The position numbers and the translations under genes were made by a program. Source: Alphaproteobacteria bacterium (GTDB lineage: Bacteria > Pseudomonadota > Alphaproteobacteria > JABAAW01). Taken from it: DNA of 64,000 bases. The notes beneath the pieces are model-generated. The model saw nothing but the letters and a program-made list of their open reading frames with translations. It had not been told where the DNA came from and did not search any database. How positions within the stretch are numbered: position 1 is the first letter of the stretch; every line of letters starts with the position of its first letter. Shown one piece after another: positions 3,120 through 62,130 of the stretch. The stretch spans positions 1,025,878 to 1,089,877 of the forward strand of contig CBDCGG010000002.1 of assembly GCA_965216605.1 (NCBI GenBank), read 5' to 3'.

Positions 3120-3159
3120 TTCTTAACGACTTTCCACCTTTTCTGCTACACTCTCTCCC

Positions 3160-5844
3160 ATGCTCGCCCCCGCCCTCCTCAGCCTCTTCGGCTCTTCCAA
3201 CGAACGCTCCCTCAAAGCCTTCAAACCCCTCCTAACCCAAACTACCGCGCTCGCGCCCGACATACAAAAACTCTCCGACGCAGAAATTAAAGAAAGCATC
3301 CACAAACTCCAACGCCAACGCAAAGAAGGAACACCCCTCGATACCCTCCTCCCCCACACCTTCGCCCTCACCCGCGAAGCCGCAACGCGAACCCTCCAAC
3401 AAACACACTTCGATGTGCAAATCCTCGGCGGAATAACACTCCACAAAGGCAACATCGCCGAAATGAAAACAGGCGAAGGGAAAACACTCGTCGCAACGCT
3501 GCCCGCAGCCCTCAACGCCCTCGATAAAAAAGGCGTCCACATCGTCACCGTCAACGACTACCTCGCTAAACGAGACGCCGCGTGGATGGCGCGAGTCTTC
3601 AACGCACTCGGACTCTCAACAGGTTGCATCCACGCGGAGCTCTCCGACACCGAGCGACAACAACAATACAACGCCGATATCACATACGGAACAAACAACG
3701 AACTGGGTTTCGACTTCCTACGCGATAACCTCAAAATGCGCGTCGAAGATCAAGCGCAACGCGACTTCCACTACGCCATCGTCGACGAGGTCGACTCCAT
3801 CCTCATCGACGAAGCCCGAACGCCCCTCATCATCTCAGGTCCTGCACAACGCAATGTCGAAACCTACAGCCAAATCGATCGCCTCGTTTTAACGCTTACA
3901 CCCGAACACTACGAAAAAGACGAAAAACAACGAAGCATCTCGCTCACCGAAGAAGGCTCAGAGTTCTGCGAAAATCTCGTCTGCGAGAAAGGACTCGTCA
4001 CCGAAGGAACGCTCTATGATCTCCACAACATCAGCCTCGTCCACCAAATCACCCAAGCGCTAAAAGCACAACACCTCTTCCACAAAGATACCGACTACAT
4101 CGTCAAAGATCGCCAAGTCCTCATCATCGACGAATTCACAGGCAGAATCATGGATGGAAGACGCTATTCCGACGGACTGCATCAAGCCATCGAAGCCAAA
4201 GAAGCCGTGCCCGTGCAAAATGAAAACCAAACGCTTGCCTCCATCACCTTCCAAAACTATTTCCGAAACTACACAAAACTCGCCGGCATGACAGGTACCG
4301 CCATGACCGAAGCCTCCGAATTCTTCGAAATCTACGGACTGAACGTCGTCGCTATCGATACCCACAAACCCATGTGCCGCCAAGACGACAACGACGAAAT
4401 CTATCGCACGCGCGTCGAGCGCGACAAAGCCGTTGTGCGACAAATCCAACATTGCCATCAGACAAAGCAACCTGTTCTTATCGGAACTGTCTCGATCGAA
4501 AAATCCGAAGCCTTGTCGCAACAGCTGAAGAAGGCGCATGTCCCGCACCAAGTGCTGAACGCGCGCAGGCACGCGCAAGAAGCCCAAATCATCGAGCAGG
4601 CAGGGCGAGCGGGAGGTGTCACCATCGCCACCAACATGGCAGGACGCGGTACCGATATACAATTGGGCGGCAATCTTGATGCCATGCTCGCGCGATGCAA
4701 AAACGACGCTGCGCGAGAAAAAACGCTGCCTGAAATCCGCTCCAACGCCGAGCAAGTACGCAACGCAGGAGGGCTCTATATATTAGGCACAGAGCGACAC
4801 GAAAGCCGCCGCATCGACAATCAACTGCGAGGAAGGGCAGGGCGGCAGGGCGATCGGGGGCAATCGAAATTCTTCCTCAGCCTTGAAGACGATCTCATGC
4901 GCATCTTCGGCTCGAAAAGGCTGGACAACATGCTGCAAAAACTGGGCATCCGTCCTGAGGAAGCCATCTCGCATCCGTGGGTGAGCAAAGCCATCGAAAA
5001 GGCGCAGAAGAAAGTCGAAGAGCAAAACTTTGAAGTAAGAAAACAACTGCTCAAGTTCGACGATGTCACCAACGATCAACGCAAGATCGTATTCGCGCAA
5101 AGGCGAGCCTTTATGAACGAAGAAGAATCGCAAAGCGAGCTTGTCGAAGAGTTTCGCAAAGAGCTGCTCGACACGACGGTCGCGCGCGCCATCCCCGAAC
5201 GCGCCATGGCAGAGCAGTGGAACTTGCAGGGATTGCACGAAGAGGTTTTGCGCTTGTTCGCGCAAGACTTACCGATCGAGGCGTGGGCGAAAGAAGAGGG
5301 GGTTGCCGAAGAGGTTTTGAAAGAACGCATCGCCGATGCCGTGCGACGACGCACAGAGCAACAGAAAGCGCAAGTCTCGCAGCTCTTGATGCAGGAGGCT
5401 GAGCGCGCATTGCTGTTGCAAGTTCAAGACGCTCTGTGGAAGGAGCACTTGGGGCAGTTGGATCATTTACGACAGGGAATCGGATTGCGATCATACGGGC
5501 AGCAAGATCCTCTGAATGCCTATCGCAAGGAAGCCTTTAACCTCTTCGAGAGCATGCTGTGGTTGCTGAAGGAAAATGTTGTAGCCTTACTCTCGCGCCT
5601 GACCTTCGATATGGAGCGTCCTTCTCAAGGTCGGCAAAGGCGCAATGCTTCGCAAGACTCTAGACACGACTCTAATCAAGTCCTGCTGCAGCATAGGGGA
5701 GAGGGCAGAGGCGAGGCGCAGAGCAAAGGCGAGGGGGGAGACTCGACCTCGCCTGTTGTGAGGGGGGAGAAGGTGCGGCGCAATGCACCTTGTCCGTGCG
5801 GGTCGGGCAAGAAGTACAAGCATTGCCACGGACGCTTAACTTAG
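3160..5844 (+). CDS. secA: Preprotein translocase ATPase SecA
   Basis: EMKTGEGKT, DEVDSILIDEARTPLIISG, TNMAGRGTDI, C-terminal CPCGSGKKYKHCHG zinc finger. Confidence 0.98.
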   Translation: MLAPALLSLFGSSNERSLKAFKPLLTQTTALAPDIQKLSDAEIKESIHKLQRQRKEGTPLDTLLPHTFALTREAATRTLQQTHFDVQILGGITLHKGNIAEMKTGEGKTLVATLPAALNALDKKGVHIVTVNDYLAKRDAAWMARVFNALGLSTGCIHAELSDTERQQQYNADITYGTNNELGFDFLRDNLKMRVEDQAQRDFHYAIVDEVDSILIDEARTPLIISGPAQRNVETYSQIDRLVLTLTPEHYEKDEKQRSISLTEEGSEFCENLVCEKGLVTEGTLYDLHNISLVHQITQALKAQHLFHKDTDYIVKDRQVLIIDEFTGRIMDGRRYSDGLHQAIEAKEAVPVQNENQTLASITFQNYFRNYTKLAGMTGTAMTEASEFFEIYGLNVVAIDTHKPMCRQDDNDEIYRTRVERDKAVVRQIQHCHQTKQPVLIGTVSIEKSEALSQQLKKAHVPHQVLNARRHAQEAQIIEQAGRAGGVTIATNMAGRGTDIQLGGNLDAMLARCKNDAAREKTLPEIRSNAEQVRNAGGLYILGTERHESRRIDNQLRGRAGRQGDRGQSKFFLSLEDDLMRIFGSKRLDNMLQKLGIRPEEAISHPWVSKAIEKAQKKVEEQNFEVRKQLLKFDDVTNDQRKIVFAQRRAFMNEEESQSELVEEFRKELLDTTVARAIPERAMAEQWNLQGLHEEVLRLFAQDLPIEAWAKEEGVAEEVLKERIADAVRRRTEQQKAQVSQLLMQEAERALLLQVQDALWKEHLGQLDHLRQGIGLRSYGQQDPLNAYRKEAFNLFESMLWLLKENVVALLSRLTFDMERPSQGRQRRNASQDSRHDSNQVLLQHRGEGRGEAQSKGEGGDSTSPVVRGEKVRRNAPCPCGSGKKYKHCHGRLT

Positions 5845-5893
5845 AGATTGGGTTTGGCGCGCGGGCAAGGGAAAGGGTTAGGAGTAGCAGGCG

Positions 5894-6640
5894 ATGTTTT
5901 CTAGCAGAAAAAAGGAGAAGGTAAGAATCGATGATTCTTTTCGCTCAGTTAACTACGACGAGCGTGGGGTTCGTGTTTCTGCGTTAGTTTTTCATTATAC
6001 GGGGATGCGCTCCGAGGCTGCTGCTTTGGATAGGTTATGCGATGGGGAGTGCGAGAATCGTGTTTCGGCGCATTATGTAGTTTCTCAGGAGGGGGTTGTG
6101 TATGGGCTGGTCGATGAGCGGTATCGCGCTTGGCATGCGGGGGTAGGTTATTGGCGGGGGTGTCGAGATCTCAACGATTGTTCTATTGGGATTGAGGTTG
6201 TGAATCCTGGACATGAGTTTGGCTATTGTGAATTCCCTAGATGTCAGATGGAGGCGGTGTTGGGGTTATCTTTGGATATTGTTAGGCGGTATAGAATTTT
6301 GTCGCCGTGGATTTTGGGACACTCGGATATTTCGGTGGGTAGGAAGAGGGATCCTGGCGAGTTATTTGACTGGCGTTATTTAGCTGAGGGGGGGGTTGGT
6401 TTTTTTCCTAACAAGGCGACGGAGGAAGATAATAATAATGGAGTTAATGGTATAGAGAGGCGGATGGGTGTTTTGTTGGGGATGATGGGTTATGATTGTG
6501 GAGTTGGGGATGGAGTTGGATTGGGGGATTGTGTGGAGGCTTTTCAGCGGAGATGGCGTGTGGGGAGGGTAGATGGGGTTGTGGATGGGGAGTGTGTGGG
6601 GATTGCGGAGGGGGTGTTGCGGGGATGGGGTGAGTTATAG
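5894..6640 (+). CDS. N-acetylmuramoyl-L-alanine amidase (AmpD/AmiD family, with C-terminal peptidoglycan-binding-like region)
   Basis: VFHYTGM, VSAHYVV, RAWHAG, SIGIE, GHSDI...RKRDPG motifs. Confidence 0.9.
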   Translation: MFSSRKKEKVRIDDSFRSVNYDERGVRVSALVFHYTGMRSEAAALDRLCDGECENRVSAHYVVSQEGVVYGLVDERYRAWHAGVGYWRGCRDLNDCSIGIEVVNPGHEFGYCEFPRCQMEAVLGLSLDIVRRYRILSPWILGHSDISVGRKRDPGELFDWRYLAEGGVGFFPNKATEEDNNNGVNGIERRMGVLLGMMGYDCGVGDGVGLGDCVEAFQRRWRVGRVDGVVDGECVGIAEGVLRGWGEL

Positions 6641-6666
6641 TTTTTTATATTTTTATATGCATGGTA

Positions 6667-7180
6667 TGTCTGCCTTTGCTTGCTTGCTCATGGGCGCGCT
6701 CTTTTGATTAGGTAGCATACGCAAGACGAGCGAGCCGTAGGCGAAGTGAGTTTTGCGCATGGGGGGTGTGGGGGGACGAAGTTCCCCCGCAAAAGACCCC
6801 GCGTCAGCGGAGCGCACGAAGTGCGTATCTACGCGCGGGAGAATTTTCTACGCACTCGCGCGACGATCTAGCGCGAGATGCGTAGCCTCTTATTCAAAAG
6901 CGCATTGCGAAGCAATGCGCAAGCTGACTCGTAACGCGGTAGAGTGTGTCTGTTCTGCGTGGGCGTGTCTGCCTTTGCTCGCCTGCGCTTTATGAGGAGC
7001 GCGCATCGCAAAGGCAGACACGGGCTTTATCTACGCGCAAAGCGCGTAGCCTCTTGTTACCAAAGCGCGTTTCGCAGAAACGCGCAAGCTGACTCGTAAC
7101 ACGGTAGGGCGATGAGTTTGTTGCCTATCTGTTGCGCTCGTGCTCATGCTTTTTAATGGCACGCTCTCGCGCAACAGATG
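6667..7180. repeat. Modular palindromic repeat cluster L1 (forward orientation, pointing toward cargo)
   Basis: Blocks shared near-identically with 10613, 35142 and 44084: GTCTGCCTTTGC..GCAAAGGCAGAC; GACGAAGTTCCCCCGCAAAAGACCCCGCGTCAGCGGAGCGC; two copies of GCGTAGCCTCTTATTCAAAAGCGC-hairpin-AAGCTGACTCGTAAC; ATCTGTTGCGC..GCGCAACAGAT. Confidence 0.92.
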
Positions 7181-7193
7181 CATTTTAATTTTT

Positions 7194-8276
7194 TTAATTA
7201 TCAATTTTAACTTCTTTTATGTCCCAATTTTTAATTTTAAGTTTTGTTTGGTCATTAGTTGTATCAAGAACCTTATTCGCTCTTGATAAAAATTTTCCTT
7301 GATAATTTTCATTATCTTTAACTAAACGATAGAACGTATCCCAGTCGACTTCTTCACGCTCTTTGGCAGGAATCAAGATTTGACCTTCAGATGATTTTTT
7401 ACGGTCAAGGCGAATTACGCCAACGCCATGAAGGTTTGCTAGTCGGCGAAGTTCTTGGGAAGTTTCTTCGTCGCCAATCTTGCCAGTGGCAAGATAGGCA
7501 AAGTTTGCCCAAAAAGAATTGGCTACCGTTTGAAAAAACGATTGCCTTATATTACTTTGATTGATCTCATTTTTTACTTCAAATGACCAAAATTTAAATC
7601 GTTTGTAACCAAGCCCTCGCATAAGGCTTACAATTTCATTTCCCGAAAAATTTTCTTGCATATCTTGCAAACCAACCACGTCTGGATAACGCCATTTATT
7701 AAACCCAGCCACTTGACCTGTGTTGCCAGAATGAGGTATATGACGGCTGTATACTTTATATCCAGACGAGTGATACATATATTCTGCTAGCACAGGGTAA
7801 AGCTCTTTTTCAAGTTTCCTTTCTTGTTCTTCTATTTCTTTTCTTTCTTGTTCTTCTCTTCTTTGCTTTTCATTTTCTTGTTTTAATTTACCTTGCTCCC
7901 TCCTATTCTGTTCTCCCTTATCTTCTGCTTTTTTAATTGTAACTTCGGCATCAGTATAATAAAGAAATTTTTTCTTTTGACTGTCGCGCAAAGAAAATAG
8001 GCGAGGTCGTACAGTTGGATCAACTTGCAAGTCAGGATGTTTTTCCTTGAATTTATCAAAGGAATTGTTTGTTGATATTTCTCTCCTAATTTGATGAATC
8101 AAACCTTCATCATCAAAGTTTGATTTGGTTTTTTTTGCTTGTGCATATTTTGGATTATGAACGACAATACGATAAGCAATTGTCATCGCGTCCAGTTCAC
8201 TAGTCGCATCTTCCTTTTGCGCATCAAGAAGAACATTGTAAAACATATCTGCTAGAAGAGTTTGTTTTTTAGCCAT
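7194..8276 (-). CDS. AT-rich COG2958/HrgA-like putative restriction-type endonuclease with N-terminal HTH-like region
   Basis: NKWRYPDVVG...WSFEVKNEINQSNIRQSFFQTVANSFWANFAYL resembles the PD-(D/E)xK COG2958 family from memory; charged coiled-coil linker; much lower GC than the flanks. Confidence 0.7.
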   Translation of the reverse strand: MAKKQTLLADMFYNVLLDAQKEDATSELDAMTIAYRIVVHNPKYAQAKKTKSNFDDEGLIHQIRREISTNNSFDKFKEKHPDLQVDPTVRPRLFSLRDSQKKKFLYYTDAEVTIKKAEDKGEQNRREQGKLKQENEKQRREEQERKEIEEQERKLEKELYPVLAEYMYHSSGYKVYSRHIPHSGNTGQVAGFNKWRYPDVVGLQDMQENFSGNEIVSLMRGLGYKRFKFWSFEVKNEINQSNIRQSFFQTVANSFWANFAYLATGKIGDEETSQELRRLANLHGVGVIRLDRKKSSEGQILIPAKEREEVDWDTFYRLVKDNENYQGKFLSRANKVLDTTNDQTKLKIKNWDIKEVKIDN

Positions 8277-8316
8277 AATCGCATCCTTTCGTTAGGGTTG
8301 TTTTCGTGAAAGAAGC

Positions 8317-8345
8317 ATGCTAGCAAAGCAAAACAGCCTCGTCAA
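8317..8345 (-). promoter_or_regulatory. Sigma70-type promoter for the 7194-8276 gene
   Basis: TTGACG-N17-TAGCAT on the minus strand, followed by an AAAGGA RBS before ATG 8276. Confidence 0.6.
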
Positions 8346-8357
8346 TCTTTTTTACCG

Positions 8358-8590
8358 TATCTGTTGCGCTACATTATTGACGCACACGGCAAGCCGTGTG
8401 CTATGGTGCTCCGCTGACGCGTGGTCTTTTGCGGGGGAACTTCGTCTGCTCTAAGCTACGCTCGCTCGCTTTGCTCGCTCCGCCACTCGCCTCTCGCCTC
8501 GCTTTTTTACGAGGCGAGCAAGACGGCTCTTGCCCCATGCGCAAAACTCTCTTCGCCCAAAAATAATCTTAAGGCTCGCTCGTCTTGCGT
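8358..8590. repeat. Repeat cluster R1 (reverse orientation)
   Basis: Reverse complements of L-type blocks: GCACACGGCAAGCCGTGTGCTATGG..CCGCTGACGCGTGGTCTTTTGCGGGGGAACTTCGTC and CCCCATGCGCAAAACTC..GGCTCGCTCGTCTTGCGT. Confidence 0.88.
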
Positions 8591-8670
8591 TTTTCCATCA
8601 ATACAAAAACGCCCGTCAATTTCTTCTAGAAACCCCTTGACTCCCTCCTCCCCCCCTGCTATCCTGCCCC

Positions 8671-9106
8671 TGCAGGCGGTCGGGCGAACGCGTGCGTCCC
8701 TTAACTCCCTTAAGAAAGACGCACGAGGAAAGTCCGGGCTCCACGAAGCATTGATGCCGGATAACCCCCGGCGAGCAAGTCCACAAAACAAGCTTAGGGA
8801 AAGCGCCACAGAAAATATACCGCCTCAATCATAAGATAGATGCCTCGCGTATCCATCTTTGAAAAAGGTAAGGGTGAAATGGTGCGGTAAAAGCGCACCG
8901 CGCGTTCGGGTAACCAACGCGGCAAGGCAAGCCCCATCAGGAGCAAGACCACTCGACGCAACCTCCCCAAAAGAGGAAATTCGGCTTCGGATGCGTCGAA
9001 GGCAGTCGCAAGAGGTGGCGAGTAATCGCTACCCTAGATGAATGTTCGCCTCGCACAAGGACATCGCGTCCCGCGAAACAGAACCCGGCTTACTAGACCG
9101 CCTGCA
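8671..9106 (+). ncRNA. rnpB: RNase P RNA (bacterial type A)
   Basis: GAGGAAAGTCCGGGCTCC near 8726, GGTGCGGTAAAAGCGCACC, 3' ACAGAACCCGGCTTA; P1 ends TGCAGGCGGTC/GACCGCCTGCA pair. Confidence 0.95.
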
Positions 9107-9174
9107 ACCTCATCTTATCCCCACCCTCATAAACTCTCCTTGCACTTCTCTTCCGCCAACTCTATAGTAGACGC

Positions 9175-10485
9175 ATGTCCCAAGACTCCTCCCCCGAAGA
9201 CTCCGTTTCCCTGAAAGACGAGCGTAGCGGAAAAACTATCCGCCTGCCCGTGCACAACGGAACGCAAGGTGCACCCGTCGTAGATATCTCAAGACTGCAC
9301 GCAGAACTCGGATACTACACCTACGACCCAGGATACGGCGCAACAGGTAGCTGCTCCTCCGCCATTACCTTCATCGACGGCGACAAAGGCGTGCTCATGC
9401 ACCGCGGATACGAAATAGAAGAGCTCGCCTTCAAAAGCGACTACCTCGAAGTCTGCTACCTCCTGCTCAACGGCGAGCTCCCGAATAAAATCCAAAAAGA
9501 AGAATTCTGCCAAATCATCCGAAACCACACCATGCTGCACGACCAAATACAGTACTTCTTCCGAGGATTCCGAAGAGACGCACATCCCATGGCTATCATG
9601 GTCGCCGTCGTCGGAGCGCTCTCCGCCTTCTATCACGACTCGCTAGATATTCAAGACGCAGAACAACGCAAACTCGCCTCTATCCGAATGATCGCTAAAA
9701 TGCCAACCATCGCAGCGCAAGTCTACAAGTACACCATCGGACAACCCTTCGTCTCGCCGCGCAACGACTTGGGCTATGTAGAAAACTTTCTGAATATGAC
9801 CTTCTCCGTGCCTGCCGAAAACTACAAGGCAGATCCCACCGTCGTGCACGCCTTAGAGCAAATCTTTATCCTACACGCCGATCACGAGCAGAACGCATCT
9901 ACCTCGACAGTGCGATTGGCGGGCTCGTCGGGAGCCAATCCCTTTGCTTGTATTGCGGCGGGTATCTCCTCGTTGTGGGGACCAGCGCACGGAGGGGCGA
10001 ACGAAGCGGTGCTGAAGATGTTGGCAGACATGCAGGATACCTCGCGTATTCCTGAATTTCTCGCGCGAGCAAAGGACAAGGACGATCCCTTTCGCTTGAT
10101 GGGATTCGGGCATCGTGTCTACAAGAACTACGATCCTCGTGCTGCAGTGTTGCGAAAATGCACGGAGGGTGTTTTGCGCTCTATGGGCGTTGAGCGCGAG
10201 CCCTTGTTCGAGCGCGCGCGCGCTTTGGAGAAGATGGCTTTGGAGGACAAGTATTTTGTCGAGCGCAAGTTGTTTCCGAATGTTGATTTTTATTCGGGCA
10301 TTTTATTGCGTGCGATGGGTTTTCCGACAAGTATGTTTACGGTGTTGTTTGCTTTGGCGCGCACGGTGGGCTGGGTTGCGCAGTGGCGTGAGATGGTGGA
10401 AGATCCTTCGGCGCGTATTGGCAGACCGAGACAATTGTATTGTGGTAAGACGAAGCGTCCTTTTGTGGATTTGGAAAAAAGGTAG
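9175..10485 (+). CDS. gltA: Citrate synthase (type I)
   Basis: [49 protein letters not shown]. Confidence 0.97.
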
Positions 10486-10612
10486 ATTCTTTCAAGGTCT
10501 TGTATATTTCAATTGATGGAAATACCTCGCGCACATGGAACGCGCGGATAGTTTTTACGGATGCAGGGCATGCGCATGCGCTAATCTTTCGTTGATGCGT
10601 AGAAGTGTTGTT

Positions 10613-11678: not shown

Positions 11679-11710
11679 GGGCGCGAAAAACACTCAACAT
11701 ACATAACCTT

Positions 11711-54350: not shown

Positions 54351-54599
54351 ATTCAGCGATAACCGCGCCGCTTTCCCCTCATCGCAAGCGACTAGAAGGG
54401 GATTCGGAGAATAATTCTACGCCATAGGGCTTTTGTTGTAAAGGCTTTTCGCGTGCGAACGACGATGCACCTTGAAATAGAAAAAACTCTCTTGCTTCAC
54501 CTTGGAGGAAAGAGAGGGGAGCCTCACAATAGGAGCGAAGTTTTTAACACGAGTGGCGAGAGAGAGTTTTCGCTCGAACGATCGTGAGGAGGTTATGAG

Positions 54600-54911: not shown

Positions 54912-54926
54912 GGGGGGGGTGATAGA

Positions 54927-55430
54927 ATGGCGGAGTATCTAACCGAGCATTTTTCGTTGCAGGAGATGGTAAGATCCTCCTTTGCGACGCGCAAGGGTTT
55001 GGACAATACGCCGACGGCTCGCCAGCGTGCGAATCTCGTTCGAACATGCGAGGTTTTGGAAGAGGTGCGCGCTTTGCTAGGCGGTCGGTTGTTGTTTGTT
55101 TCTAGCGGGTTGCGTAAGGGGAGGGTGAATGACTATCAGGGGGGTGCTCGTCGTTCGGCGCACAAGAGGGGATTGGCAGCGGATTTGGATAATTTGCCTG
55201 AGGGCAACTACGAGTCGTTTTTGCGGATAGCACCTTATGTCTTGCGGCGGGAGTTTCCTGTCGATCAGTTGATCGGGGAGTTCTTTTTGCCAGACGAGCC
55301 TCGCGGGGGGTGGATTCACATGGGGTTAGCGGATGGGCGGAAGGAGCCGAGGTATCAGATTTTGCGTGCAGAGAAGGTTGGGGGCAGGACGCGCTATCTT
55401 GTTTGGGATGAGCCGTGGCAGATGGTGTAG
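54927..55430 (+). CDS. Peptidase M15A family (phage-endolysin-like) protein
   Basis: LTEHFSLQEM..S, SSGLR..VN..GG..SAH..GLAAD, WIHMG zinc motifs. Confidence 0.85.
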   Translation: MAEYLTEHFSLQEMVRSSFATRKGLDNTPTARQRANLVRTCEVLEEVRALLGGRLLFVSSGLRKGRVNDYQGGARRSAHKRGLAADLDNLPEGNYESFLRIAPYVLRREFPVDQLIGEFFLPDEPRGGWIHMGLADGRKEPRYQILRAEKVGGRTRYLVWDEPWQMV

Positions 55431-55463
55431 GGAGTAATAAGGGGGGAGGGGGGAGGGGATAAA

Positions 55464-55545
55464 TGGAGGGAGTAGGATTCGAACCTACGTAGGCAGAGCC
55501 AACGGGTTTACAGCCCGTCTCCTTTAACCACTCGGACATCCCTCC
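55464..55545 (-). tRNA. tRNA-Tyr(GTA)
   Basis: GGAGGGA/TCCCTCC acceptor, ACGGG-CTGTAAA-CCCGT anticodon arm, long variable arm. Confidence 0.95.
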
Positions 55546-55585
55546 GATAGCCGTATTTTACGATGTATGAGGGGCGGAGGCAAGG

Positions 55586-55659
55586 GGGGAATTTATCCCC
55601 AAGGGGAATTTATCCCCCTCGCGCCCCCGCGTGCTACGCACGCGATGTTTTGCATCCGT
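55586..55659. repeat. Partial reverse repeat copy with tandem GGGGAATTTATCCCC palindromes
   Basis: CCCCGCGTGCTACGCACGCGATGTTTTGCATCCGT matches 45841-45875; the GGGGAATTTATCCC motif is also at ~10726 and, reversed, at ~35472. Confidence 0.8.
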
Positions 55660-55680
55660 GAAAATTGTCAGCGCACATGC

Positions 55681-56733
55681 CTACGCGTCAACCCTCTGCT
55701 CCTCATCCAACACAGCAAATACCCCCTCCAACACCTCCTCAATGCCCTCCCCCGTCACATTAGAAATCACAAAAACACCCCCCAAATTCCGCTCCCCCAA
55801 CACCTCCCCCAATGCCCCCCCGACCGCCTCGCGCAAGACCTCCGCCTCCCCAACATTCAACAAATCCGCCTTCGTTACAATAAAAAAACGACGCTTCTCC
55901 AATAACCCACAGCCATATCCCCCCAACTCATCCCCAATAATCCGAAAATCCTCCACTAACCCCGCAACAATATCCGATATATCTCCCCCAACCCGCGCCT
56001 CCGCTAACTGCAACAAAACTCGACACCGCTCCATATGTCCCAAGAAACGATGCCCCAATCCTAATCCCTCGCTCGCTCCCTCTATCAAGCCAGGCAAATC
56101 GGCAAAAACAGCCTCCCGATAACCCCGCAAAACAAACCCCAAGTGAGGACGCAAAGTCGTATAGGCATACTCCGCAACCTTCGTCTTCGATCGACTCACC
56201 GAACGCAATAACGAAGACTTCCCCGCATTCGGCAAACCCGCAAGTCCCACATCCGCCAAAACCTTCAATCGCAAAATCACACGCCTTGCCTCCCCCTCAC
56301 CGCCATCCTGCGACATGCGCGGCGACCGATGCGTCGAAGAACGAAAATGCGCGTTTCCATATCCACCCCGACCCCCGCGACACAACAAAACCTCCTCCCC
56401 CGCCTCCACAAGATCGGCAAGCAAGGCACCACTCGCCTCGTCAAAAACTTGCGTCCCCTGCGGCAGATCGAGCACAATATCCTCTCCTCCCTGTCCGCTC
56501 CGATTTTTTCCCTGTCCGCTGCCGCCGCGCGTAGCGAAAATCCGCCTCCGATAACGATAGTCCAAAAGCGTGTTCAAGCCCTCGACAGCACGCGCAGAAA
56601 TATGCCCTCCCCTGCCGCCGTTGCCGCCGTTCGGACCTCCGCGCGGTACAAACTTCTCGCGCAGAAACGAAATACAGCCGCCGCCGCCGTCACCCGCCTT
56701 GAGCTCTAGTTTGGCAAAATCATGAAACCGCAT
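55681..56733 (-). CDS. obgE: GTPase ObgE/CgtA
   Basis: GGPNGGNGGRGG, DVGLAGLPNAGKSS, YAYTTL.P.LG, ADLPGLIEGA. Confidence 0.96.
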   Translation of the reverse strand: MRFHDFAKLELKAGDGGGGCISFLREKFVPRGGPNGGNGGRGGHISARAVEGLNTLLDYRYRRRIFATRGGSGQGKNRSGQGGEDIVLDLPQGTQVFDEASGALLADLVEAGEEVLLCRGGRGGYGNAHFRSSTHRSPRMSQDGGEGEARRVILRLKVLADVGLAGLPNAGKSSLLRSVSRSKTKVAEYAYTTLRPHLGFVLRGYREAVFADLPGLIEGASEGLGLGHRFLGHMERCRVLLQLAEARVGGDISDIVAGLVEDFRIIGDELGGYGCGLLEKRRFFIVTKADLLNVGEAEVLREAVGGALGEVLGERNLGGVFVISNVTGEGIEEVLEGVFAVLDEEQRVDA

Positions 56734-56754
56734 CGCGCGGCTCGCTCAGCTAAG

Positions 56755-57069
56755 TCAAACGCTCGTCGTCGTTTGCTCGGTCGTAGGCGAGGGCTTTTTA
56801 GAGATAGCCTCAACGACACTTTCGGCGACAACATCGACCATCGATCGCGTGCGCCGCTTACGGAAAGAAACATGTCCCTCCTTCAAGGCAAAAAGCGTGT
56901 GATCCTTGCCAATGCCGACATGGGCGCCCGGATGAAACTTAGTGCCGCGCTGGCGCACGATGATCGTGCCAGGCAAGACCTTCTCGCCGCCGTAACGCTT
57001 CACGCCAAGCCTGCGTCCCGCAGAATCGCGTCCGTTGCGCGATGATCCCCCTGCTTTCTTATGCGCCAT
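56755..57069 (-). CDS. rpmA: 50S ribosomal protein L27
   Basis: [24 protein letters not shown]. Confidence 0.97.
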
Positions 57070-57161
57070 CGTTTTTCTCCTCGTTTTTCTCTGGGTGTTT
57101 CTTCTGGTGTTTTTCTGGTGTTTTTGCTGTTTCTTGTCCGTTGGAATCAAGCTTGTTGTCG

Positions 57162-57476
57162 TCAGCCTTGCGAGATATCCGTGATCTCTACACGCGTCAG
57201 ATACTGACGATGTCCGTTCTTGCGCCGCGAATGCTTGCGACGACGTTTTTTGAAGACAATCAACTTCTCGCCGCGATGCTGCGAGAGAACCTTGCCGCTC
57301 ACTCGCGCCTTCTCCAGCACAGCAGGATCGACAATCGTGTCCTTGTCCGCACCCAGCAGCAAAACGCGATCGAACACAACGCTCTCGCCTACCTCGGCAG
57401 GAAGCCGCTCAAGCGTGACATGCACGCCTTTCGCAACGCGATACTGCTTTCCTCCAGTTTCAACAACAGCAAACAT
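57162..57476 (-). CDS. rplU: 50S ribosomal protein L21
   Basis: [25 protein letters not shown]. Confidence 0.97.
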
Positions 57477-57715
57477 GACAAACAATACGCGAGAGAGTCC
57501 CAAAGTGAGAGAACAAAGACGCTTGAGAGTGATCTCAAAGCCATCCTCGCGCAAGCATAGCAAGCTTGCAACCTCGTTGGCAAGGATTTTTTCAAGAAGA
57601 GCATAAGAATGTCATTTGTCTTAAATTTAAGTTGCGTCTCGGCGGTTTTTGTGCAAGTATCATAGGGGGAGAGGGGTTGGAATCGACAATCGTGCTTTTT
57701 AGCGAGGTGACACCC

Positions 57716-58561
57716 ATGCAACAGATACAGGAGCAGACAGAATCGTCTGCAGCAACGGCGATGCCGTCTACAGATGCGTCGGATGCGTTGCAAGTGAGCG
57801 AGACGAGCGTGGCAGGTCTTTACGACTGGTTCCTCGGCATTTTCTCGTCAGAGCAAAGCGCAGACGCAAACGCCGCCGCAGGTCAGATCGAGGCGTTGAC
57901 AGGAACGGCAACAGTTCTTCGCAACGACGAGCAGAGACTCCTGCGTTTGGGCGACGACATCTACGCCGATGACACAATAGCAACAGGAGCAGACTCAAAA
58001 CTGACCATCGTCTTTATCGACGGCATGGAGTTTCGCTTGGGAGAAGACGCAAAGCTTTTAATCGACGATTTCGTCTTCGATCAGACGAACTCTACAGGAT
58101 TGCAGAGCTTGTCGGCGATCAAGGGAGCTTTCTCCTACGAGAGCGGCTTGCTCGCGGCAAACGATCCCTCGGCGGTGACGATCAAAACGCCATTAGGCAC
58201 ATTAGGCATTCGCGGAACAAAACTTATGGGTTTGGCAGACACTCCTGAGGGACAATGCATCATAACGCTGCTGGACGGACAGATCAAGGTCACAGGCGAC
58301 AAGGGGGGAAGTGCACTTTTGTCCGAGAAATTTGACACAGCCACGATGCGAATCGAATGGAGCCATGTCGGCATGAGCCAACACTCGAAAACAGAGACAG
58401 AGTCGACATTCAAAGATCTGCTCTTTGGCGGCGACGAGGGGGCGATGCAGTCTTTCTTCGACGAGGAGAAAAGCAGCTTCCGTCTGGAAGACAGCGACGC
58501 TTATTCAATCTACGGCGAGACAGCAGCGACAGAGTTCTTGGCGCCGCACCCCGAAGGCTAA
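57716..58561 (+). CDS. FecR-domain protein
   Basis: GDDIYADDTIATG..IVFIDG..LGEDAKLLIDDFVFD..IKTPLGTLGIRGT. Confidence 0.75.
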   Translation: MQQIQEQTESSAATAMPSTDASDALQVSETSVAGLYDWFLGIFSSEQSADANAAAGQIEALTGTATVLRNDEQRLLRLGDDIYADDTIATGADSKLTIVFIDGMEFRLGEDAKLLIDDFVFDQTNSTGLQSLSAIKGAFSYESGLLAANDPSAVTIKTPLGTLGIRGTKLMGLADTPEGQCIITLLDGQIKVTGDKGGSALLSEKFDTATMRIEWSHVGMSQHSKTETESTFKDLLFGGDEGAMQSFFDEEKSSFRLEDSDAYSIYGETAATEFLAPHPEG

Positions 58562-58729
58562 AAAATCTAAAACTAAAGGCTAGCAGCCTTCCTCCGCCAA
58601 CCTTCCTCCTCCTTTCGCTTTAACGCGCTTGGCTTTAACGCGCTTGCAAAGGCGCTTTGGCAGCCTATGATGTTTGCTTGGATATTTGCTTGGATATTTG
58701 CTTGGATATTTGCTTGGATGTTTGCTTGG

Positions 58730-59464
58730 TCAGGCTGCGGCTAGAATCGTCTCCAACTTCTCTACCGCCAAACGCTCCTCGATCTTCTCGACAACCGCAA
58801 CCTCGCGCGACAAACGCTCCAACGCCAACTGGTAATACTGCCGCTCGCTATACGAAGGGCTGGGTTGCTCCTCGCCGCGATACAACTCACGCACAACCTG
58901 CGCCAATCGAACGGGGTCGCCCGAACGAATCTTGTTGTCATACTCCTGCGCACGACGTCCCCACATCGTCTTGCGAATACGACGTTTCGTCTTCAAAGTG
59001 TCGTAGATGCCCTCCATCGCCTCTGGAGAACTCACGCTGCGCAATCCACAATTCTGATACTCGCAAGTCGGAACGCGAACAATCATACGCTCCTGCTCGA
59101 AACTGATCGCTATCATGTCCAAACGCGCGCCCGCAATCTCCTCCGCCTCGACACCGCGAACATAGCCAACGCCATGCGCAGGATGGACGAGGTAGTCACC
59201 CTGGGCAACCTTGTCAGTTTCAATCACGGCAGGTTCGACATTCTTGCCGTCAACATCTCCCTGATGCGGGGGTTGAGGCTTGTTGTTTGCTACAATCTTG
59301 AGCTTAGGCTTGATACTAGCCTTAATAGTAGCTTTGGGCTTCGCCTTGAATTTCGCTTTTTCTTCGCTAGCACTCTTCCGAGAGCTCGAGCGCAGCGTCG
59401 CAGCTCTGTCGCGCAGAGAGCCAAAAACGCTTCTTTTCGCCTTGGGTTGTTCTTTTAGCAGCAA
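58730..59464 (-). CDS. carD: CarD family RNA-polymerase-binding regulator (N-terminal extension may continue to 59747 across a frameshift)
   Basis: GDYLVHPAHGVG, MWGRRAQEY..KIRSGD..A.VVREL, SYSERQ.Y..AL.RL. Confidence 0.9.
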   Translation of the reverse strand: MLLKEQPKAKRSVFGSLRDRAATLRSSSRKSASEEKAKFKAKPKATIKASIKPKLKIVANNKPQPPHQGDVDGKNVEPAVIETDKVAQGDYLVHPAHGVGYVRGVEAEEIAGARLDMIAISFEQERMIVRVPTCEYQNCGLRSVSSPEAMEGIYDTLKTKRRIRKTMWGRRAQEYDNKIRSGDPVRLAQVVRELYRGEEQPSPSYSERQYYQLALERLSREVAVVEKIEERLAVEKLETILAAA

Positions 59465-59961
59465 CCTCTTTAGCAGCCTTTTGGGGTTGTTCTTGGGAGC
59501 GTATTTCTAGGTTGTCTTCTTTGTCGCTTTGCTTGCGATTCTTCTTGGCTGTTTTCTTGACAGTGCTCTTGATAGTTCTCTTGAAAGTCTTGGGCTTCGC
59601 ATCCTCCGCCCCTTGATCCAAAGTTGCCGACAAATTTACCGATTCCTGCTCCATCGATTCTTGCTTTACCGATTCCTGCTCCATCGATTTTATCGATTCT
59701 TGCGATTCTTGCTCCACCGCTTCTTGCTTCATCGATCTTTCCTCCATCGACTTTCCCCCGTTAAAAAAATGTCTGCGCAACGCCTTCCCCCAAGAATTCT
59801 CTAAAGCTCCCTTTAAAGCCCTCTTTCCGCCTGAAGCGTAGACTATACAAACGACACAAAAATTTCCCCCCACTTTTTCCCCGTGCCACAACTTCCCCTA
59901 AACGCTCTCTAATAGGAGAGACGCTTCCCCCGAGAAGTTCCTAACACTCTATCACAAAAAA

Positions 59962-61137
59962 TCAGACTTCGCAACACTCTGCAACAATTTTTTCGACAAA
60001 AGAGCAACTCTTCTCCAACTGCTCCTTCTCTAAAAACTCGTTCGCCTTGTGCGCCTGATCGATCGAGCCAGGACCGCACACGATCGAGGCAATGCCCGCG
60101 CGCTGATACTGCCCTGCCTCGGTCACATAGCCGGCATAGCGGTGCTGATTGTCTCCCGTTATCTTGCGCACCAAACGCTCGGCTTCGGAATCCACCTCTG
60201 GCTTCAGCGAGGCAACAGCCGCCTTAGAGCGTGTCTCGATCGAACAGCCCTCGTGCACCGCGCGCATCGCAGGCAGGATATGCTGTTGATGCCACTCCTC
60301 GAACGCCTTAGGCAAAGCTTGCTCGTCGTCCTCAGGCAGCGCTCGCAAGTCCCACAGAAAAGAGCACGACGGAGCAATGATATTCACCGCTGTCCCGCCC
60401 TTGATCACGCCCACATGCACGCTTGTCCAAGGTGGATCGAAACGATCGTCCTTGTGTTTTTGCTCTTGCTGTTGCATCTCGCCCAGTTTTGCGACGAGCT
60501 GCGCGGCTGCCATCACGGCGCTCACGCCTTGGCGAATGTCGGAGGAGTGTCCTGCGAATCCCTCTACCCGCGTCTCGAAGATAGCAATCGACTTGTGTCC
60601 TGAGATCGGCTTCATCATGCTGGGCTCTCCGACTACGACACAGCTGGGCGAGGGAGACTTCTCTTGCAACGCTCGGATTGCGTGCGGCGCGCCGAGGCAT
60701 CCTACTTCTTCGTCGTAGGTCAGCACCAAGTGGATCGGACGACGCAGCTCGGCTGCAACCATCGACGGCACAACGGCAAGCACGCTGGCGAGAAAGCCCT
60801 TCATATCGCAAGCGCCTCTGCCGTAGAGTTTTCCGTCTTTCTCGGTGAGGAGGAAGGGATCGGTGTCCCACGCCTGCTCTGACACGGGAACGACATCCGT
60901 ATGCCCGGAGAGAACAACGCCTCCTTCTTTCTGCGGGCCTATCGTTGCGATCAGATTGGCTTTTCCCTGCTGATCGGGCGAGGGCAGAATCTCGACGGCA
61001 ACGCCTGACTTTCGCAACTCTTCCGCAGCCCACTCGATGAGCGGCAGGTTCGAAGTGCTGGACACAGAGGGAAATGCGACAAGGCGCGCAAGAATCTCGG
61101 TGGCTCGTTCCAGCGTTTGCGGGGAGGTGCGCGACAT
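59962..61137 (-). CDS. argE: Acetylornithine deacetylase (M20)
   Basis: LSGHTDVVP, GRGACDMKG, DEEVGC, VGEPS, GPGSIDQAHKANE. Confidence 0.9.
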   Translation of the reverse strand: MSRTSPQTLERATEILARLVAFPSVSSTSNLPLIEWAAEELRKSGVAVEILPSPDQQGKANLIATIGPQKEGGVVLSGHTDVVPVSEQAWDTDPFLLTEKDGKLYGRGACDMKGFLASVLAVVPSMVAAELRRPIHLVLTYDEEVGCLGAPHAIRALQEKSPSPSCVVVGEPSMMKPISGHKSIAIFETRVEGFAGHSSDIRQGVSAVMAAAQLVAKLGEMQQQEQKHKDDRFDPPWTSVHVGVIKGGTAVNIIAPSCSFLWDLRALPEDDEQALPKAFEEWHQQHILPAMRAVHEGCSIETRSKAAVASLKPEVDSEAERLVRKITGDNQHRYAGYVTEAGQYQRAGIASIVCGPGSIDQAHKANEFLEKEQLEKSCSFVEKIVAECCEV

Positions 61138-61328
61138 GCCTCCATCATAGGGAGGCAACTGGAGCGATGCAACTAGCGTGGTGCGGAAAGAGCAACGCAC
61201 CGCTCGGCGGTAAGACCGAGCGATGCGTTTTTTTTTAGCTCTTCCTCCTGCTTCTTCCTCCTGCTCTGCTCGCTTTTGCAACTTGCTTTAGCGAGCGGAG
61301 GGGAGGGGGATAGGGGAGGGGTTAGGGG

Positions 61329-61865
61329 TTATGCGGCTTGCGCTTGTTTGACAGCGGAGGTTGGGAGTTTTGTGCTGCTGTCTTTTGTTAGCACGGGGAT
61401 TCGTTTGGGTTTGGCTTCTTCGGGGATATCGCGCAGGAGTTCGATATGGAGCAGTCCGTTTTCGAGCTGCGCTTTTTCTACTCGGACATGTTCGGCGAGG
61501 CTGAATTGTCTTGAGAAGGCTCTTTCTGCGATTCCTCGATGGAGGAAGTTCGACTCGTTGGTTGGGTCGTATTGGTTTTCGCTCTTGCTTTTTGCTTGCG
61601 AGATTTGTCCTTGTGGATTTGGAGCGATTTTGCCAGCGACTTTACCTTGTATAGTGAGCAGGTTTTGTTTGAGTTCCACTTCCAGGTCTTCGGGACGGAA
61701 TCCTGCTACTGCCATCGAGATTCGGTAGTTATTTTCGTTAATTTTCTCGATATTGTATGGGGGGTATGCGGAAGTAGGTGCTTCTGCCATTTCGTCGAAG
61801 AGTTGGAACAATCTGTCGAAGCCGACGGTTGTTCGGAAGAGTGGTGATAGATCGAATCGTGTCAT
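61329..61865 (-). CDS. ibpA: Small heat-shock protein (IbpA family)
   Basis: FDLSPLFRTTVGFDRL, YPPYNIE, HRGIAER.F.R.F.LA. Confidence 0.93.
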   Translation of the reverse strand: MTRFDLSPLFRTTVGFDRLFQLFDEMAEAPTSAYPPYNIEKINENNYRISMAVAGFRPEDLEVELKQNLLTIQGKVAGKIAPNPQGQISQAKSKSENQYDPTNESNFLHRGIAERAFSRQFSLAEHVRVEKAQLENGLLHIELLRDIPEEAKPKRIPVLTKDSSTKLPTSAVKQAQAA

Positions 61866-61992
61866 GGTATTTCTCCTTTGATGAAGCGAGAGGGTTTGTG
61901 TATTCTCGCGGAGTAGATTTTTTCGAGGCTTTGTGAGCCCTCGATACTTTCTACGATGCGAGAGGCAACGGCTGTTATTAGCCCGTTGCTTT
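61866..61992 (-). promoter_or_regulatory. ROSE-like RNA thermometer in the ibpA 5' UTR
   Basis: The last hairpin UCUCGCUU-CAUCA-AAGGAGA pairs UCGCU with the SD and leaves a bulged G; upstream hairpins GCAACGG/CCGTTGC and TCGAGG/CCTCGA. Confidence 0.6.
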
Positions 61993-61995
61993 GAT

Positions 61996-62026
61996 ATATG
62001 TGGGGAGGGGTAGGGGGGATGTCAAG
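61996..62026 (-). promoter_or_regulatory. Sigma32-like promoter of ibpA
   Basis: CTTGAC-N15-CCCCACATAT on the minus strand. Confidence 0.55.
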
Positions 62027-62130
62027 GGCGGCGGAGAATTTTTATTATTACCGAATTGCAGTAGATGGTACAAAGCATGCATTGACAAGGATAGAGGTAG
62101 GGCAAAGATTCACCTCACAAGGAATGTGCG

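Follow-up and report, generated by a model that had tools for sequence, protein, structure and literature searches.

A saw-tooth of strand skew tied to hairpin-repeat junctions in an alphaproteobacterial chromosome

INTRODUCTION

Strand asymmetry is commonly used to infer replication and transcription history from sequence, and the GC skew of a replicon normally has two switches, with a leading strand rich in G+T. The window analysed here, a 64-kb stretch of the chromosome of an uncultured alphaproteobacterium, switches its skew far more often. A sequence-only reading placed the flips at the junctions of repeats and cargo with host genes and took them for the mark of single-stranded DNA (ssDNA) deamination. 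The questions raised by this locus are what the flips track and what kind of process could write them.

RESULTS

Organization of the window. The contig that carries the window is 1.63 Mb long, and a relative with 96% SecA identity has a closed circle of 1.9 Mb. Core operons are arranged as blocks of 2 to 13 kb, and between the blocks lie hairpin-repeat clusters (REP/BIME-like mosaics), often with AT-rich defence cargo or next to genes for tRNA or RNase P; each of the window's five stable-RNA genes is at a block edge. The junction density is about 1 per 6 kb, from which we estimate a few hundred junctions per genome (about 250 sites). The features are as follows, with skews for the + strand and gene strands in parentheses.

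2931..3159, junction acs(-) / tRNA-Arg(+) / secA(+): 4-fold skew +0.36 to -0.70, strong; repeat absent here, present in relative L088
3160..6640, + strand, host block secA-amidase: 4-fold skew -0.74 to +0.93
6641..8474, junction element: hairpin-repeat arm 6641-7193, AT-rich cargo ORF 7194-8276(-), arm 8277-8474; unskewed throughout
8475..10612, + strand, host block RNase P RNA (8672-9109) and gltA: gltA skew -0.58 to +0.14; noncoding flanks C-rich (-0.45, -0.68), RNase P RNA itself without skew
10613..11677, junction element: repeat arm, cargo ORF 10898-11551(-), repeat arm
11678..24577, long host block leuA-like, cysS, msrA, hydrolase, YggS, dctPQM, dnaA, eamA: left end -0.40, right end +0.47
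24578..24754, solo repeat junction eamA>/<trpS: 46-nt inverted arms and shared repeat module; 4-fold drop 1.09
24755..30903, blocks trpS-murJ(-) and recG-MTase(+): outer ends -0.85 and +0.84; weak flip without repeat at 27472-27503
30904..31653, junction with type II REase cargo (30900-31583) and repeat 31600-31653
31654..35135, - strand, host block sua5-ubiB-ubiE with noncoding promoter flank (34944-35135, G83/C16): 4-fold skew -1.00 to +0.89
35136..37090, junction element: repeat arm, AT-rich cargo ORF 35676-36776(+), repeat arm; without skew
37091..40710, + strand, host block DUF1289-ftsK-lolA: 4-fold skew -0.90 to +0.38; flank 37091-37264 G17/C65
40711..40776, solo repeat junction lolA>/<hyp303, 66 bp: 4-fold drop 0.92
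40777..44077, - strand, four-gene host block, the last gene a class II aldolase: 4-fold skew -0.47 to +0.76; flank 43906-44077 G76/C13
44078..45960, junction element: repeat arm 44078-44520, AT-rich cargo, repeat arm 45450-45960; without skew
45961..55430, host block pse/neu-type sugar operon(-), tpiA, tRNA-Trp/Gly(-), hyp103-M15 peptidase(+): 4-fold skew -0.87 to +0.40
55431..55680, junction M15>/ tRNA-Tyr(-) and repeat /<obg: 4-fold drop 1.11
55681..62130, host block obg-L27-L21(-), fecR(+), carD(-), M20-hsp20(-): left end -0.69, right end +0.48; internal boundaries without flip
62131..64000, AT-rich defence cargo, C5 DNA methyltransferase(+) and PD-Lambda-5-like nuclease(-): without skew

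The recG-MTase block is drawn to 30903 rather than 29650 because the methyltransferase beside recG (29893-30903) is conserved and skewed. Skew in the long block 11678..24577 is confined to its two ends, with four or five internal transcription-unit boundaries that show no flip, and the short + unit hyp103-M15 peptidase that ends block 45961..55430 is G-rich along its full length.

Size and shape of the skew. The six hand counts in 60-bp lines on which the saw-tooth had been proposed are exact (6541-6600, G33/C3; 24361-24420, G21/C5; 24781-24840, G7/C34; 37201-37260, G5/C28; 43981-44040, G29/C3; 46021-46080, G4/C21). In 500-bp windows, GC skew has a standard deviation of 0.235, compared to 0.061 in shuffled sequence, and a maximum absolute value of 0.645, compared to 0.17. 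When sharp switches are scored by comparing 400 bp on the left with 400 bp on the right, there are 13 G-to-C drops (at 3120, 6780, 10630, 24680, 27480, 31650, 35320, 37120, 40790, 44080, 45970, 55610, and 59600) and a single C-to-G rise. A/T skew varies together with G/C skew, so that keto bases (G+T) are enriched on the strand as each block nears its right end. The drop at 59600 disappears at 4-fold degenerate sites and arises from low-complexity coding sequence in carD; the flip at 27480, between murJ and recG and without a repeat, is moderate at such sites (+0.07/+0.18 to -0.41), and the murJ skew lies chiefly at codon position 2.

At 4-fold degenerate sites the skew runs to extremes of -1.00 and +0.93, with a mean amplitude of 0.57, and the bias is present alike in synonymous, nonsynonymous, and noncoding sites. 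Protein composition is not the driver, since 4-fold sites reach these values and noncoding flanks are equally skewed; the amino acid compositions of SecA, FtsK, Sua5, and others are themselves shifted by the bias. That the pattern ignores the strand of the genes, as had been claimed, is partly automatic, because a profile running from C to G is its own reverse complement; what stands is that 5'-facing and 3'-facing gene ends are both affected. The bias begins exactly at the outer edge of an element and fades into host DNA on both sides over about 1 to 2 kb; skew peaks in the final 100 to 200 bp before the element and is near zero within its arms and cargo. The 3'-facing edges are stronger and sharper; the 5'-facing edges are weaker and longer, their skew being greatest upstream of promoters and as far as the element.

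What the flips track. The flips fall precisely where hairpin-repeat clusters end, whether AT-rich defence cargo is present or not, and solo repeats without cargo have flanks almost as strongly skewed. At boundaries with repeats or cargo the 4-fold skew drops by 0.68 to 1.68, compared to -0.30 to +0.48 in 9 of the 10 transcription-unit boundaries that have neither (Fisher p=0.0011; Mann-Whitney p=0.0004). The association with repeat and cargo junctions thus withstood comparison with plain transcription-unit boundaries. The sole exception among the 10 is tRNA-Arg/secA, where L088 carries the junction-repeat module as an insert that aligns to the repeat family. Interior convergent 3' ends and divergent promoters in the window show no flip, and the interior 3' ends hyp154/YggS and fecR/carD show no G enrichment; positive skew along transcription, of the type associated with R-loops, is present at junction-facing 3' ends and absent at interior ones. 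A small baseline excess of C3 over G3 on the coding strand produces drops at repeat-free boundaries of +0.2 to +0.4 where genes diverge and of -0.1 to -0.3 where they converge. Asymmetry of the transcription type would keep a constant coding-strand sign within each unit and switch at unit boundaries generally; here the sign reverses inside secA, recG, ubiB, gltA, and operons, and switching at boundaries is not general. Nor is there one switch at an origin and one at a terminus, as replication would give, the window having 13 sharp drops and its relatives being alike.

Conservation in relatives. The saw-tooth is found again at the same syntenic junctions in L081, L082, L085, L087, and L088, despite a 4-fold identity of 0.61 to 0.66 (about 35% synonymous turnover) and cargo that is different or absent. 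In L087 (91% identical) the arms of 6641..8474 are kept and the cargo ORF is missing, L085 has GmrSD cargo at the site of junction 30904..31653, and the flip at M15/tRNA-Tyr/obg is kept in L081 and L082. In relatives with about 60% protein identity the pattern is weak, and where identity is 53% it is absent. Because it persists at syntenic junctions while 4-fold sites have diverged and cargo has changed or gone, the bias is maintained in several diverged lineages, ongoing and independent of the current cargo. The tRNA-Arg site is strongly skewed though it has no element now, a point that bears against the excision model considered below.

Junction repeats. The repeats are short imperfect palindromes, extragenic, in mosaic clusters and many copies, as REP/BIME elements are. 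Their arms are mosaics rather than simple terminal inverted repeats, since the modules lack mirror order (I1 compared to I8). Repeats and cargo are both unskewed. The best terminator-like hairpins are located in the repeat arms, and sigma-70-like sites between 34.5 and 46.5 kb number 21, compared to 9.9 ± 3 expected (about 2-fold), mostly within cargo. The 64-kb window holds no cognate RAYT/TnpA-REP gene.

Composition and substitution near junctions. The strand running 5' to 3' toward a junction is, as had been proposed, poor in C and A and rich in G and T: its 4-fold sites within 500 bp of the junction have G.45-.49, C.13, A.13, and T.24-.30, compared to G.32, C.35, A.17, and T.16 in block interiors. 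Substitutions polarised for this strand, which are small in count (tens of events) and accompanied by reversible-model rates that are mutually non-independent, give C loss ×1.47 (×1.83 leaving out the cysS outlier), C>T ×1.4-1.75, C>G ×2-3.2, and a weak rise in A>G (×1.2-1.6, with wide intervals). There is no rise in G>A or G>C, with T>C at ×0.46-0.54 and G>C at ×0.35, and C gain is about halved (×0.50, p=0.0045). The total synonymous rate is unchanged, with 4-fold identity of 0.647 ± 0.019 at edges and 0.647 in interiors, and polarised totals are 59.8 against 56.5-72.1 per 1000. A model that adds ssDNA deamination alone, fitted to the composition, requires about 1.4-fold synonymous change at edges and an identity of about 0.59.

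The deamination signature therefore holds in part: the geometry, the C loss, and the strand-specific C>T excess near junctions (×1.5 in polarised substitutions) agree with it, and the unchanged rate, the halved C gain, and the weak A>G do not. The lost cytosines show no sequence-context preference of an APOBEC- or SsdA-like kind, the C/(C+T) odds being reduced to 0.33-0.57 of those in interiors whichever base lies 5' or 3'. Beyond composition there is no enrichment of G4 motifs (21 compared to 17.1 ± 7.5) or GGG runs (720 compared to 747 ± 28). A strand-specific fixation bias (S about 1.1-1.4), from selection or biased conversion, accounts for these rates just as well.

DISCUSSION

Our best guess, which we hold tentatively, is that one specific strand is repeatedly excised and resynthesised, starting from nicks or breaks at the junction elements. 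The element boundary would be nicked or broken by a nuclease, either structure-specific or transposase-like, or by cleavage of a hairpin or cruciform; the strand with its 5' end at the junction would be excised 5' to 3' and resynthesised, and the surviving 3'-ended strand, transiently single-stranded, would act as template. Lesions on this strand (deaminated or abasic C) would be fixed as C>T and C>G and those on the excised strand erased, with the outcome that the 3'-ended strand loses more C, gains less, and keeps a level total rate; the step would be sharp at the element end and then decay like an excision tract. The same fragile sites could be the entry points for repeats and defence cargo. 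Both flanks and both types of gene end are affected, with the geometry expected for 5' to 3' excision from the junction, and an unchanged rate with opposed shifts is better fitted by fixing lesions on one strand and erasing them on the other than by added damage. The decay length of about 1 kb is within the range of excision and resection tracts (RecJ/AddAB, long-patch repair). Against the excision model, halving the mutations of the excised strand is demanding, as each flank must be processed in a large fraction of generations at about 250 sites per genome, and the sharper 3'-facing and longer 5'-facing edges hint that transcription is involved. No nick, break, nuclease, or transposase behind such processing was seen, and none is encoded within the window. 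A stronger form, in which programmed strand-specific nicking and excision at hairpin-repeat junctions in nearly every generation both writes the saw-tooth and opens the sites to defence cargo, is doubtful; at its extreme, the blocks would be units with telomere-like, G/T-rich 3' ends.

A reading that we consider unlikely has R-loops or transcription converging on junctions, where the hairpin clusters would make polymerases (sense at 3'-facing edges, antisense at 5'-facing ones) pause or terminate. The non-template strand, 3' toward the junction, would be laid bare by R-loops trailing the polymerases and deaminated, and the template shielded by transcription-coupled repair, with G-richness reinforcing the R-loops. 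The sign is correct for the non-template strand and complementary mutation classes shift both up and down; the terminator-like hairpins in the arms, the stronger and sharper 3'-facing edges, which would be sense-driven, and the placement of all five stable-RNA genes also fit, and human gene 3' ends, with positive GC skew and R-loops, offer a precedent (PMC3787257). It is at odds, however, with the two interior 3' ends that lack G enrichment, with G runs and G4 motifs at compositional levels, and with a skew that climbs toward the junction instead of being uniform along units, and the 5'-facing peaks upstream of promoters would require strong antisense transcription through the promoters. Selection is a rather improbable source: the flanks would be kept so that RNA leaving the junctions has much C and A, little G and U, and no structure, and such RNA would form a long Rho-loading region shielding core operons from promoter-rich, AT-rich cargo and from tRNA or RNase P read-through, at many weakly selected sites as in codon bias. 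Rates that resemble a fixation bias (C>T up, T>C down, total unchanged), the doubled sigma-70-like sites in cargo, and a pattern that is symmetrical between the flanks and persists at hot spots irrespective of cargo all suit it, but its reach of 1 to 3 kb, the altered composition of SecA, FtsK, and Sua5, the all-or-none state at 4-fold sites (-1.00), and the lack of any motif-level signal do not. Moreover, outward RNA at 5'-facing edges is translated sense mRNA, where Rho cannot act, and skew is nearly as strong beside solo repeats that have no cargo.

The original proposal, that plain double-strand breaks and resection leave 3' tails to spontaneous deamination or that forks converge on the junctions, now seems improbable. 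Its geometry and keto enrichment fit and the predicted strand has more C>T and C>G, but the observed edge identity is about 3 SE from the predicted 0.59, and the halved C gain is not predicted. Converging forks would need an origin within every 2- to 13-kb block, and exposure during Okazaki-fragment synthesis should, by reasoning, give the opposite saw-tooth shape. The sequence carries no sign of the postulated breaks, linear ends, or converging forks. Ordinary causes (codon usage or protein composition, recent inversions, horizontally acquired islands, assembly artefact) have almost no chance of explaining the pattern: the coding-strand C3 baseline and the codon-position-2 skew of murJ are of this kind, but noncoding flanks are equally skewed, the sign reverses within genes and operons, the affected genes are syntenic core genes, and independent assemblies from several samples agree. 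They were rejected on the 4-fold profiles, the boundary test, the noncoding flanks, and the recurrence in relatives.

In this lineage, then, a third, unexplained process outweighs replication and transcription at the kilobase scale, one that is linked to REP-like repeats and defence-gene hot spots, drives synonymous sites to all-G or all-C, and reshapes the essential SecA, FtsK, Sua5, and Obg. If recurrent nicking or excision is the correct reading, the saw-tooth would be a natural record of chromosome processing sites, would tie fragile sites directly to the gain of genes, and could serve to tell mutation bias from fixation bias. In these genomes it would mislead skew-based origin finding, inference of gene inversions, and codon usage analyses.

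We found no earlier description of this saw-tooth in the literature, and no flanking strand-skew gradient reported for REP/BIME elements or integration hot spots. Replication-associated GC and keto skew shares with it the excess of G over C and of T over A on one strand, synonymous sites included; here, however, the sign switches about 10 times within 64 kb, a span too short to give the fork direction, the amplitude is several-fold higher, and the gradient is anchored at repeat elements rather than stepping at ori/ter. The human N-domain, or factory-roof, skew between replication origins (Huvet, Arneodo, Thermes, and colleagues) is reportedly also a saw-tooth, with sharp jumps at set positions and gradual change between them, but the jumps here are opposite (downward), the scale is about 100 to 1000 times smaller, and the anchors are hairpin-repeat and mobile-element junctions, not origins. 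The vertebrate mitochondrial H-strand gradient, which follows time spent single-stranded, likewise has a graded gain of G+T and loss of C+A on one strand at 4-fold sites; here there is no excess substitution rate and each block has two opposed gradients. GC skew associated with R-loops at human gene 5' and 3' ends (Ginno et al. 2013, PMC3787257) shares the positive non-template-strand skew toward transcript 3' ends, whereas in this window skew is negative at 5' ends, absent from interior 3' ends, and bound to junction elements, not transcription units. In their own make-up, the junctions resemble REP/BIME clusters and hot spots flanked by core genes, being mosaics of short imperfect extragenic palindromes in many copies, with variable accessory and defence genes at conserved sites.

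Genomic setting and junction elements

The window is a segment of a bacterial chromosome on a 1,625,166-bp contig, and a relative with a 96% identical SecA, ERZ25071281 ctg49611_89x_c, is a closed circle of 1,902,689 bp. The window carries tRNA-Arg, -Trp, -Gly, and -Tyr genes along with the ordinary core genes acs, secA, an amidase gene, gltA, a leuA-like gene, cysS, msrA, dctPQM, dnaA, trpS, murJ, recG, sua5, ubiB, ubiE, ftsK, lolA, a pse/neu-type sugar operon, tpiA, obg, carD, and hsp20. In a genome scan, the nearest species-representative genomes, mostly of Acetobacteraceae- and Rhodospirillales-like alphaproteobacteria, reached FtsK identities of only 41-58%; a graded series of relatives is present among metagenome assemblies.

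The junction elements between host blocks are mosaics of short imperfect palindromes. Modules flanking a cargo are each inverted, but their mirror order is absent (I1 versus I8; 44083-44401 versus 45787-45954), so the elements are closer to REP/BIME clusters than to simple transposon terminal repeats. The arms (the hairpin-repeat clusters) are BIME-like mosaics built from independent palindromic units, not two terminal inverted repeats forming one pair. With a GC content of 31-39%, the cargo is AT-rich, and it is largely defence-related, including a type II REase beside a conserved MTase, a C5-MTase with a PD-Lambda-5-like nuclease, and family-less ORFs; Pfam and PADLOC gave no match for the four arm-flanked AT-rich segments 7194-8276, 10898-11551, 35676-36776, and 44521-45449. 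At these sites or analogous ones, relatives have GmrSD, AbiJ, SacI-type, and other R-M genes. Cargo1 (the ORF at 7194-8276, minus strand) is missing from the 91%-identical relative L087, which retains the arms, and is thus a recent presence/absence polymorphism. Adjoining recG is a conserved, host-like, skewed N6/N4 MTase. In the window its partner is a type II REase (the two together at 29893-31583), and in relative L085 the type IV enzyme GmrSD (12602-15825); the methylase is fixed and the nuclease beside it has been swapped.

Strength and shape of the skew

The six 60-bp hand counts of the sequence-only reading are all exact, and the SD of 500-bp GC skew is 0.235 in the window, compared to 0.061 in shuffles. 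There are 13 sharp G-to-C drops and one sharp rise. The same reading called the pattern independent of coding strand; this is partly automatic, since a C-to-G profile is its own reverse complement, but gene 5′ and 3′ ends that face junctions are indeed both affected.

Composition was taken at 4-fold degenerate sites on the strand running 5′ to 3′ toward the nearest block edge. Less than 500 bp from an edge, the frequencies are G.45-.49, C.13, A.13, and T.24-.30 (GC skew.57, TA skew.3-.4); beyond 3 kb they are G.32, C.35, A.17, and T.16. The most extreme 450-nt slices, on the plus strand, are found in sua5 (-1.00), the DUF1289 gene (-0.90), the CTP-transferase gene (-0.87), trpS (-0.85), the amidase gene (+0.93), and ubiE (+0.89). 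Codon positions 1 and 2 track the skew less strongly, and distortion is visible at protein termini, e.g., at the FtsK N terminus. Noncoding host flanks are skewed as much as coding sites:

34944-35135, noncoding host flank, G83/C16
37091-37264, noncoding host flank, G17/C65
43906-44077, noncoding host flank, G76/C13

The 4-fold-site and noncoding analyses rule out protein or codon composition as the cause. The skew is maximal in the last 100-200 bp beside an element and falls stepwise to zero inside it; neither the repeat arms (|skew| ≤ 0.09) nor the cargo is skewed, and the same holds for one stable-RNA gene:

8672-9109, class A RNase P RNA

Skew switches coincide with repeats and cargo

Each transcription-unit or block boundary was scored by 4-fold sites over 600 bp per side. 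Boundaries with hairpin repeats and/or AT-rich cargo have drops of 0.68-1.68, exceeding 0.6 in eight of nine cases, the ninth being measurable on one side only. Those lacking both have drops of -0.30 to +0.48, in keeping with a small baseline coding-strand bias of C3>G3. The claim that switches lie at repeat/cargo junctions rather than operon boundaries is therefore borne out (Fisher p=0.0011, Mann-Whitney p=0.0004). The sole repeat-free boundary with a strong flip, acs|tRNA-Arg|secA (drop 1.07), is explained by relative L088, which has ~190 bp of the window's repeat family between tRNA-Arg and secA.

At 4-fold sites, no flip was seen at the interior convergent 3′ ends hyp154|YggS and fecR|carD or at the divergent promoters msrA|hydrolase, YggS|dctP, and rplU|fecR. 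The short M15 unit is G-rich over its full length because it lies <1 kb from a junction, and the 5′ end of the rplU-rpmA-obg unit is not C-rich. Together these observations rule out transcription units as the cause.

The murJ|recG flip is modest. An apparent flip at 59600 arises from low-complexity carD coding sequence and is gone at 4-fold sites. The spurious drop is produced by 15-bp tandem units of the TTTACCGATTCCTGCTCCATCGATT family (59635-59752), upstream of carD or within an N-terminal extension; the frame and start of carD may differ from those of the 298-aa orthologue in relative L081. The plus-strand 4-fold skew rises sharply at the hyp379|degT boundary and then has an interior bump within degT (49131-50443; +0.65, +0.41, +0.26), a shape opposite to the usual saw-tooth. 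Relative L084 has an MTase/T5orf172 cargo between pseB and degT.

The saw-tooth persists in relatives

Five relatives have the saw-tooth at the same syntenic junctions (skew SD 0.17-0.26), with the same repeat families there and cargo that varies among genomes or is missing:

L081, Obg 83%
L082, Obg 79%
L085, RecG 83%
L087, SecA 96%
L088, SecA 88%

At 4-fold sites, the ~84% relatives share an identity of only 0.61-0.66 with the window, whatever the distance from edges. Retention of the saw-tooth despite this divergence and the changing cargo indicates that it is maintained by a continuing process that is not tied to the current cargo. In L084, a 60% relative, the saw-tooth is weaker (SD 0.148) and surrounds that genome's own cargo and a related hairpin family of its own; in L086, a 53% relative, the saw-tooth is absent (SD 0.118).

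The L084 cargo is flanked by GC-rich palindromes (e.g., GGGGGGCTTAAGCCCCCC and GGGACTCGTCCC; 5023-5130, 6714-7930, 12885-12999, and 13762-13930), including a 201-bp tandem duplication; these palindromes are analogous to the window repeats yet distinct.

Substitutions near edges

A reversible rate matrix was fitted to 4-fold pairs, comparing edges (<700 bp) with interiors (at least 2 kb) on the edge-directed strand. Edge/interior rate ratios are raised for C>T (×1.75, 1.1-2.7), C>G (×3.2, 1.7-5.4), and A>G (×1.6, 0.95-2.7); the others are T>C ×0.46 (0.29-0.70), T>G ×0.55, G>A ×0.93, and G>C ×1.06. The total rate hardly differs between edges (0.54) and interiors (0.52). A damage-only model matching the edge composition needs C>T ×4.6 and predicts a total rate of 0.73-0.75 and an identity of 0.588-0.593; the observed identity is 0.647 ± 0.019, and a strand-specific fixation-bias model predicts 0.666. 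Hypermutation at edges is ruled out, as there is no extra divergence there.

Third-codon-position changes between the window and L087 were also polarised with L088 as the outgroup. Loss of C is ×1.47 near edges (p=0.07), or ×1.83 (p=0.02) without the aberrantly divergent cysS, and gain of C is ×0.50 (p=0.0045), or ×0.59 (p=0.07) without cysS, the reduced gain comprising T>C ×0.54, G>C ×0.35, and A>C 0 versus 8 events. Per 1000, edges have 59.8 changes in total, and interiors have 72.1, or 56.5 once cysS is left out. The 3′-ended strand thus loses C faster and gains it more slowly, and the overall rate is not accelerated: the C loss expected under the proposed ssDNA deamination is present, but the rise in total rate expected of added damage is absent.

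C depletion is alike in all sequence contexts, and G-runs, G4 motifs, and oriented k-mers in the window occur at composition-predicted levels; a deaminase context preference, G4 motifs, and oriented k-mers of the Chi type were accordingly rejected, as nothing beyond composition was found. The CysS proteins (window 13390-14847, L087 19512-20954) are 77.6% identical and neighbouring genes 95-97%, which suggests recombination import or faster evolution of cysS alone.

Candidate mechanisms

The asymmetry is of the familiar keto type, yet it fails defining features of several known kinds. The window lacks the two-switch pattern of replication skew, the constant sign along a unit of transcription skew, and the positive 5′ ends and G clusters of R-loop terminal skew. 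Human N-domains have skew jumps of opposite sign at megabase scale, so the window differs from them in both respects. Mitochondrial-type exposure gradients come with a rate excess, which the window lacks, and deaminase clusters have a context preference, whereas C depletion here is context-free. Full-text searches of the literature turned up no account of such a saw-tooth in bacteria.

Any mechanism must address a geometry in which, on either flank, the strand with its 3′ end facing the junction is keto-rich; the bias steps sharply where the element ends and decays over ~1-2 kb. In our top-ranked model, held tentatively, the element boundary would be nicked or broken repeatedly, and 5′-to-3′ excision and then resynthesis would start there. 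The 3′-ended strand would be exposed and used as template, so that its lesions would be fixed, and the other strand would be renewed, so that its lesions would be erased. We propose that this accounts for the sharp and symmetrical step, the lack of skew within the elements, their link to insertion hot spots, and rates that are redistributed but not accelerated. Very frequent processing is needed. Ranked next, and unlikely in our estimate, is transcription that runs inward and pauses at the hairpin clusters, together with R-loops and transcription-coupled repair: the stronger and sharper 3′-facing edges and the co-location of stable-RNA genes with junctions favor it, but it leaves the unskewed interior 3′ ends unexplained and requires strong antisense transcription across promoters. 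The fixation-bias-like rates would suit weak many-site selection for C/A-rich, unstructured outward RNA serving as Rho insulators around promoter-rich foreign DNA; this we consider more doubtful still. It does not fit the kilobase range, the amino-acid cost, or the translated 5′-facing edges. Ranked last, as improbable, is plain breakage and deamination, or converging forks, as the sequence-only reading had proposed.

Further candidates were rejected by reasoning. Okazaki-fragment exposure with priming fixed at the junctions would give steep rises and slow single-sign declines, opposite to the data; outward replication or transcription from the elements with canonical sign gives the wrong sign, as does incoming linear DNA with resected ends bearing the cargo; and base-specific biased gene conversion in heteroduplex yields GC bias and no skew.

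Additional sequence features

A 520-bp lower-GC spacer (GC ~0.46, local skew -0.21) precedes dnaA (22202-23626, plus strand; with the spacer, 21683-23626) and may be an origin region; any origin-type switch there is swamped by the local saw-tooth. The murJ|recG spacer of L085 (10262-10349) contains short tandem-like units (GAAGACTAGCAC/GAAGACTGGCAC...), and public gene calls there fuse upstream sequence into an 840-aa RecG and shorten murJ. A 9-bp tandem repeat, (GAAGAGCAA)n, occupies 54827-54916 at the 3′ end of a small ORF (54600-54911) that precedes the M15 peptidase gene.
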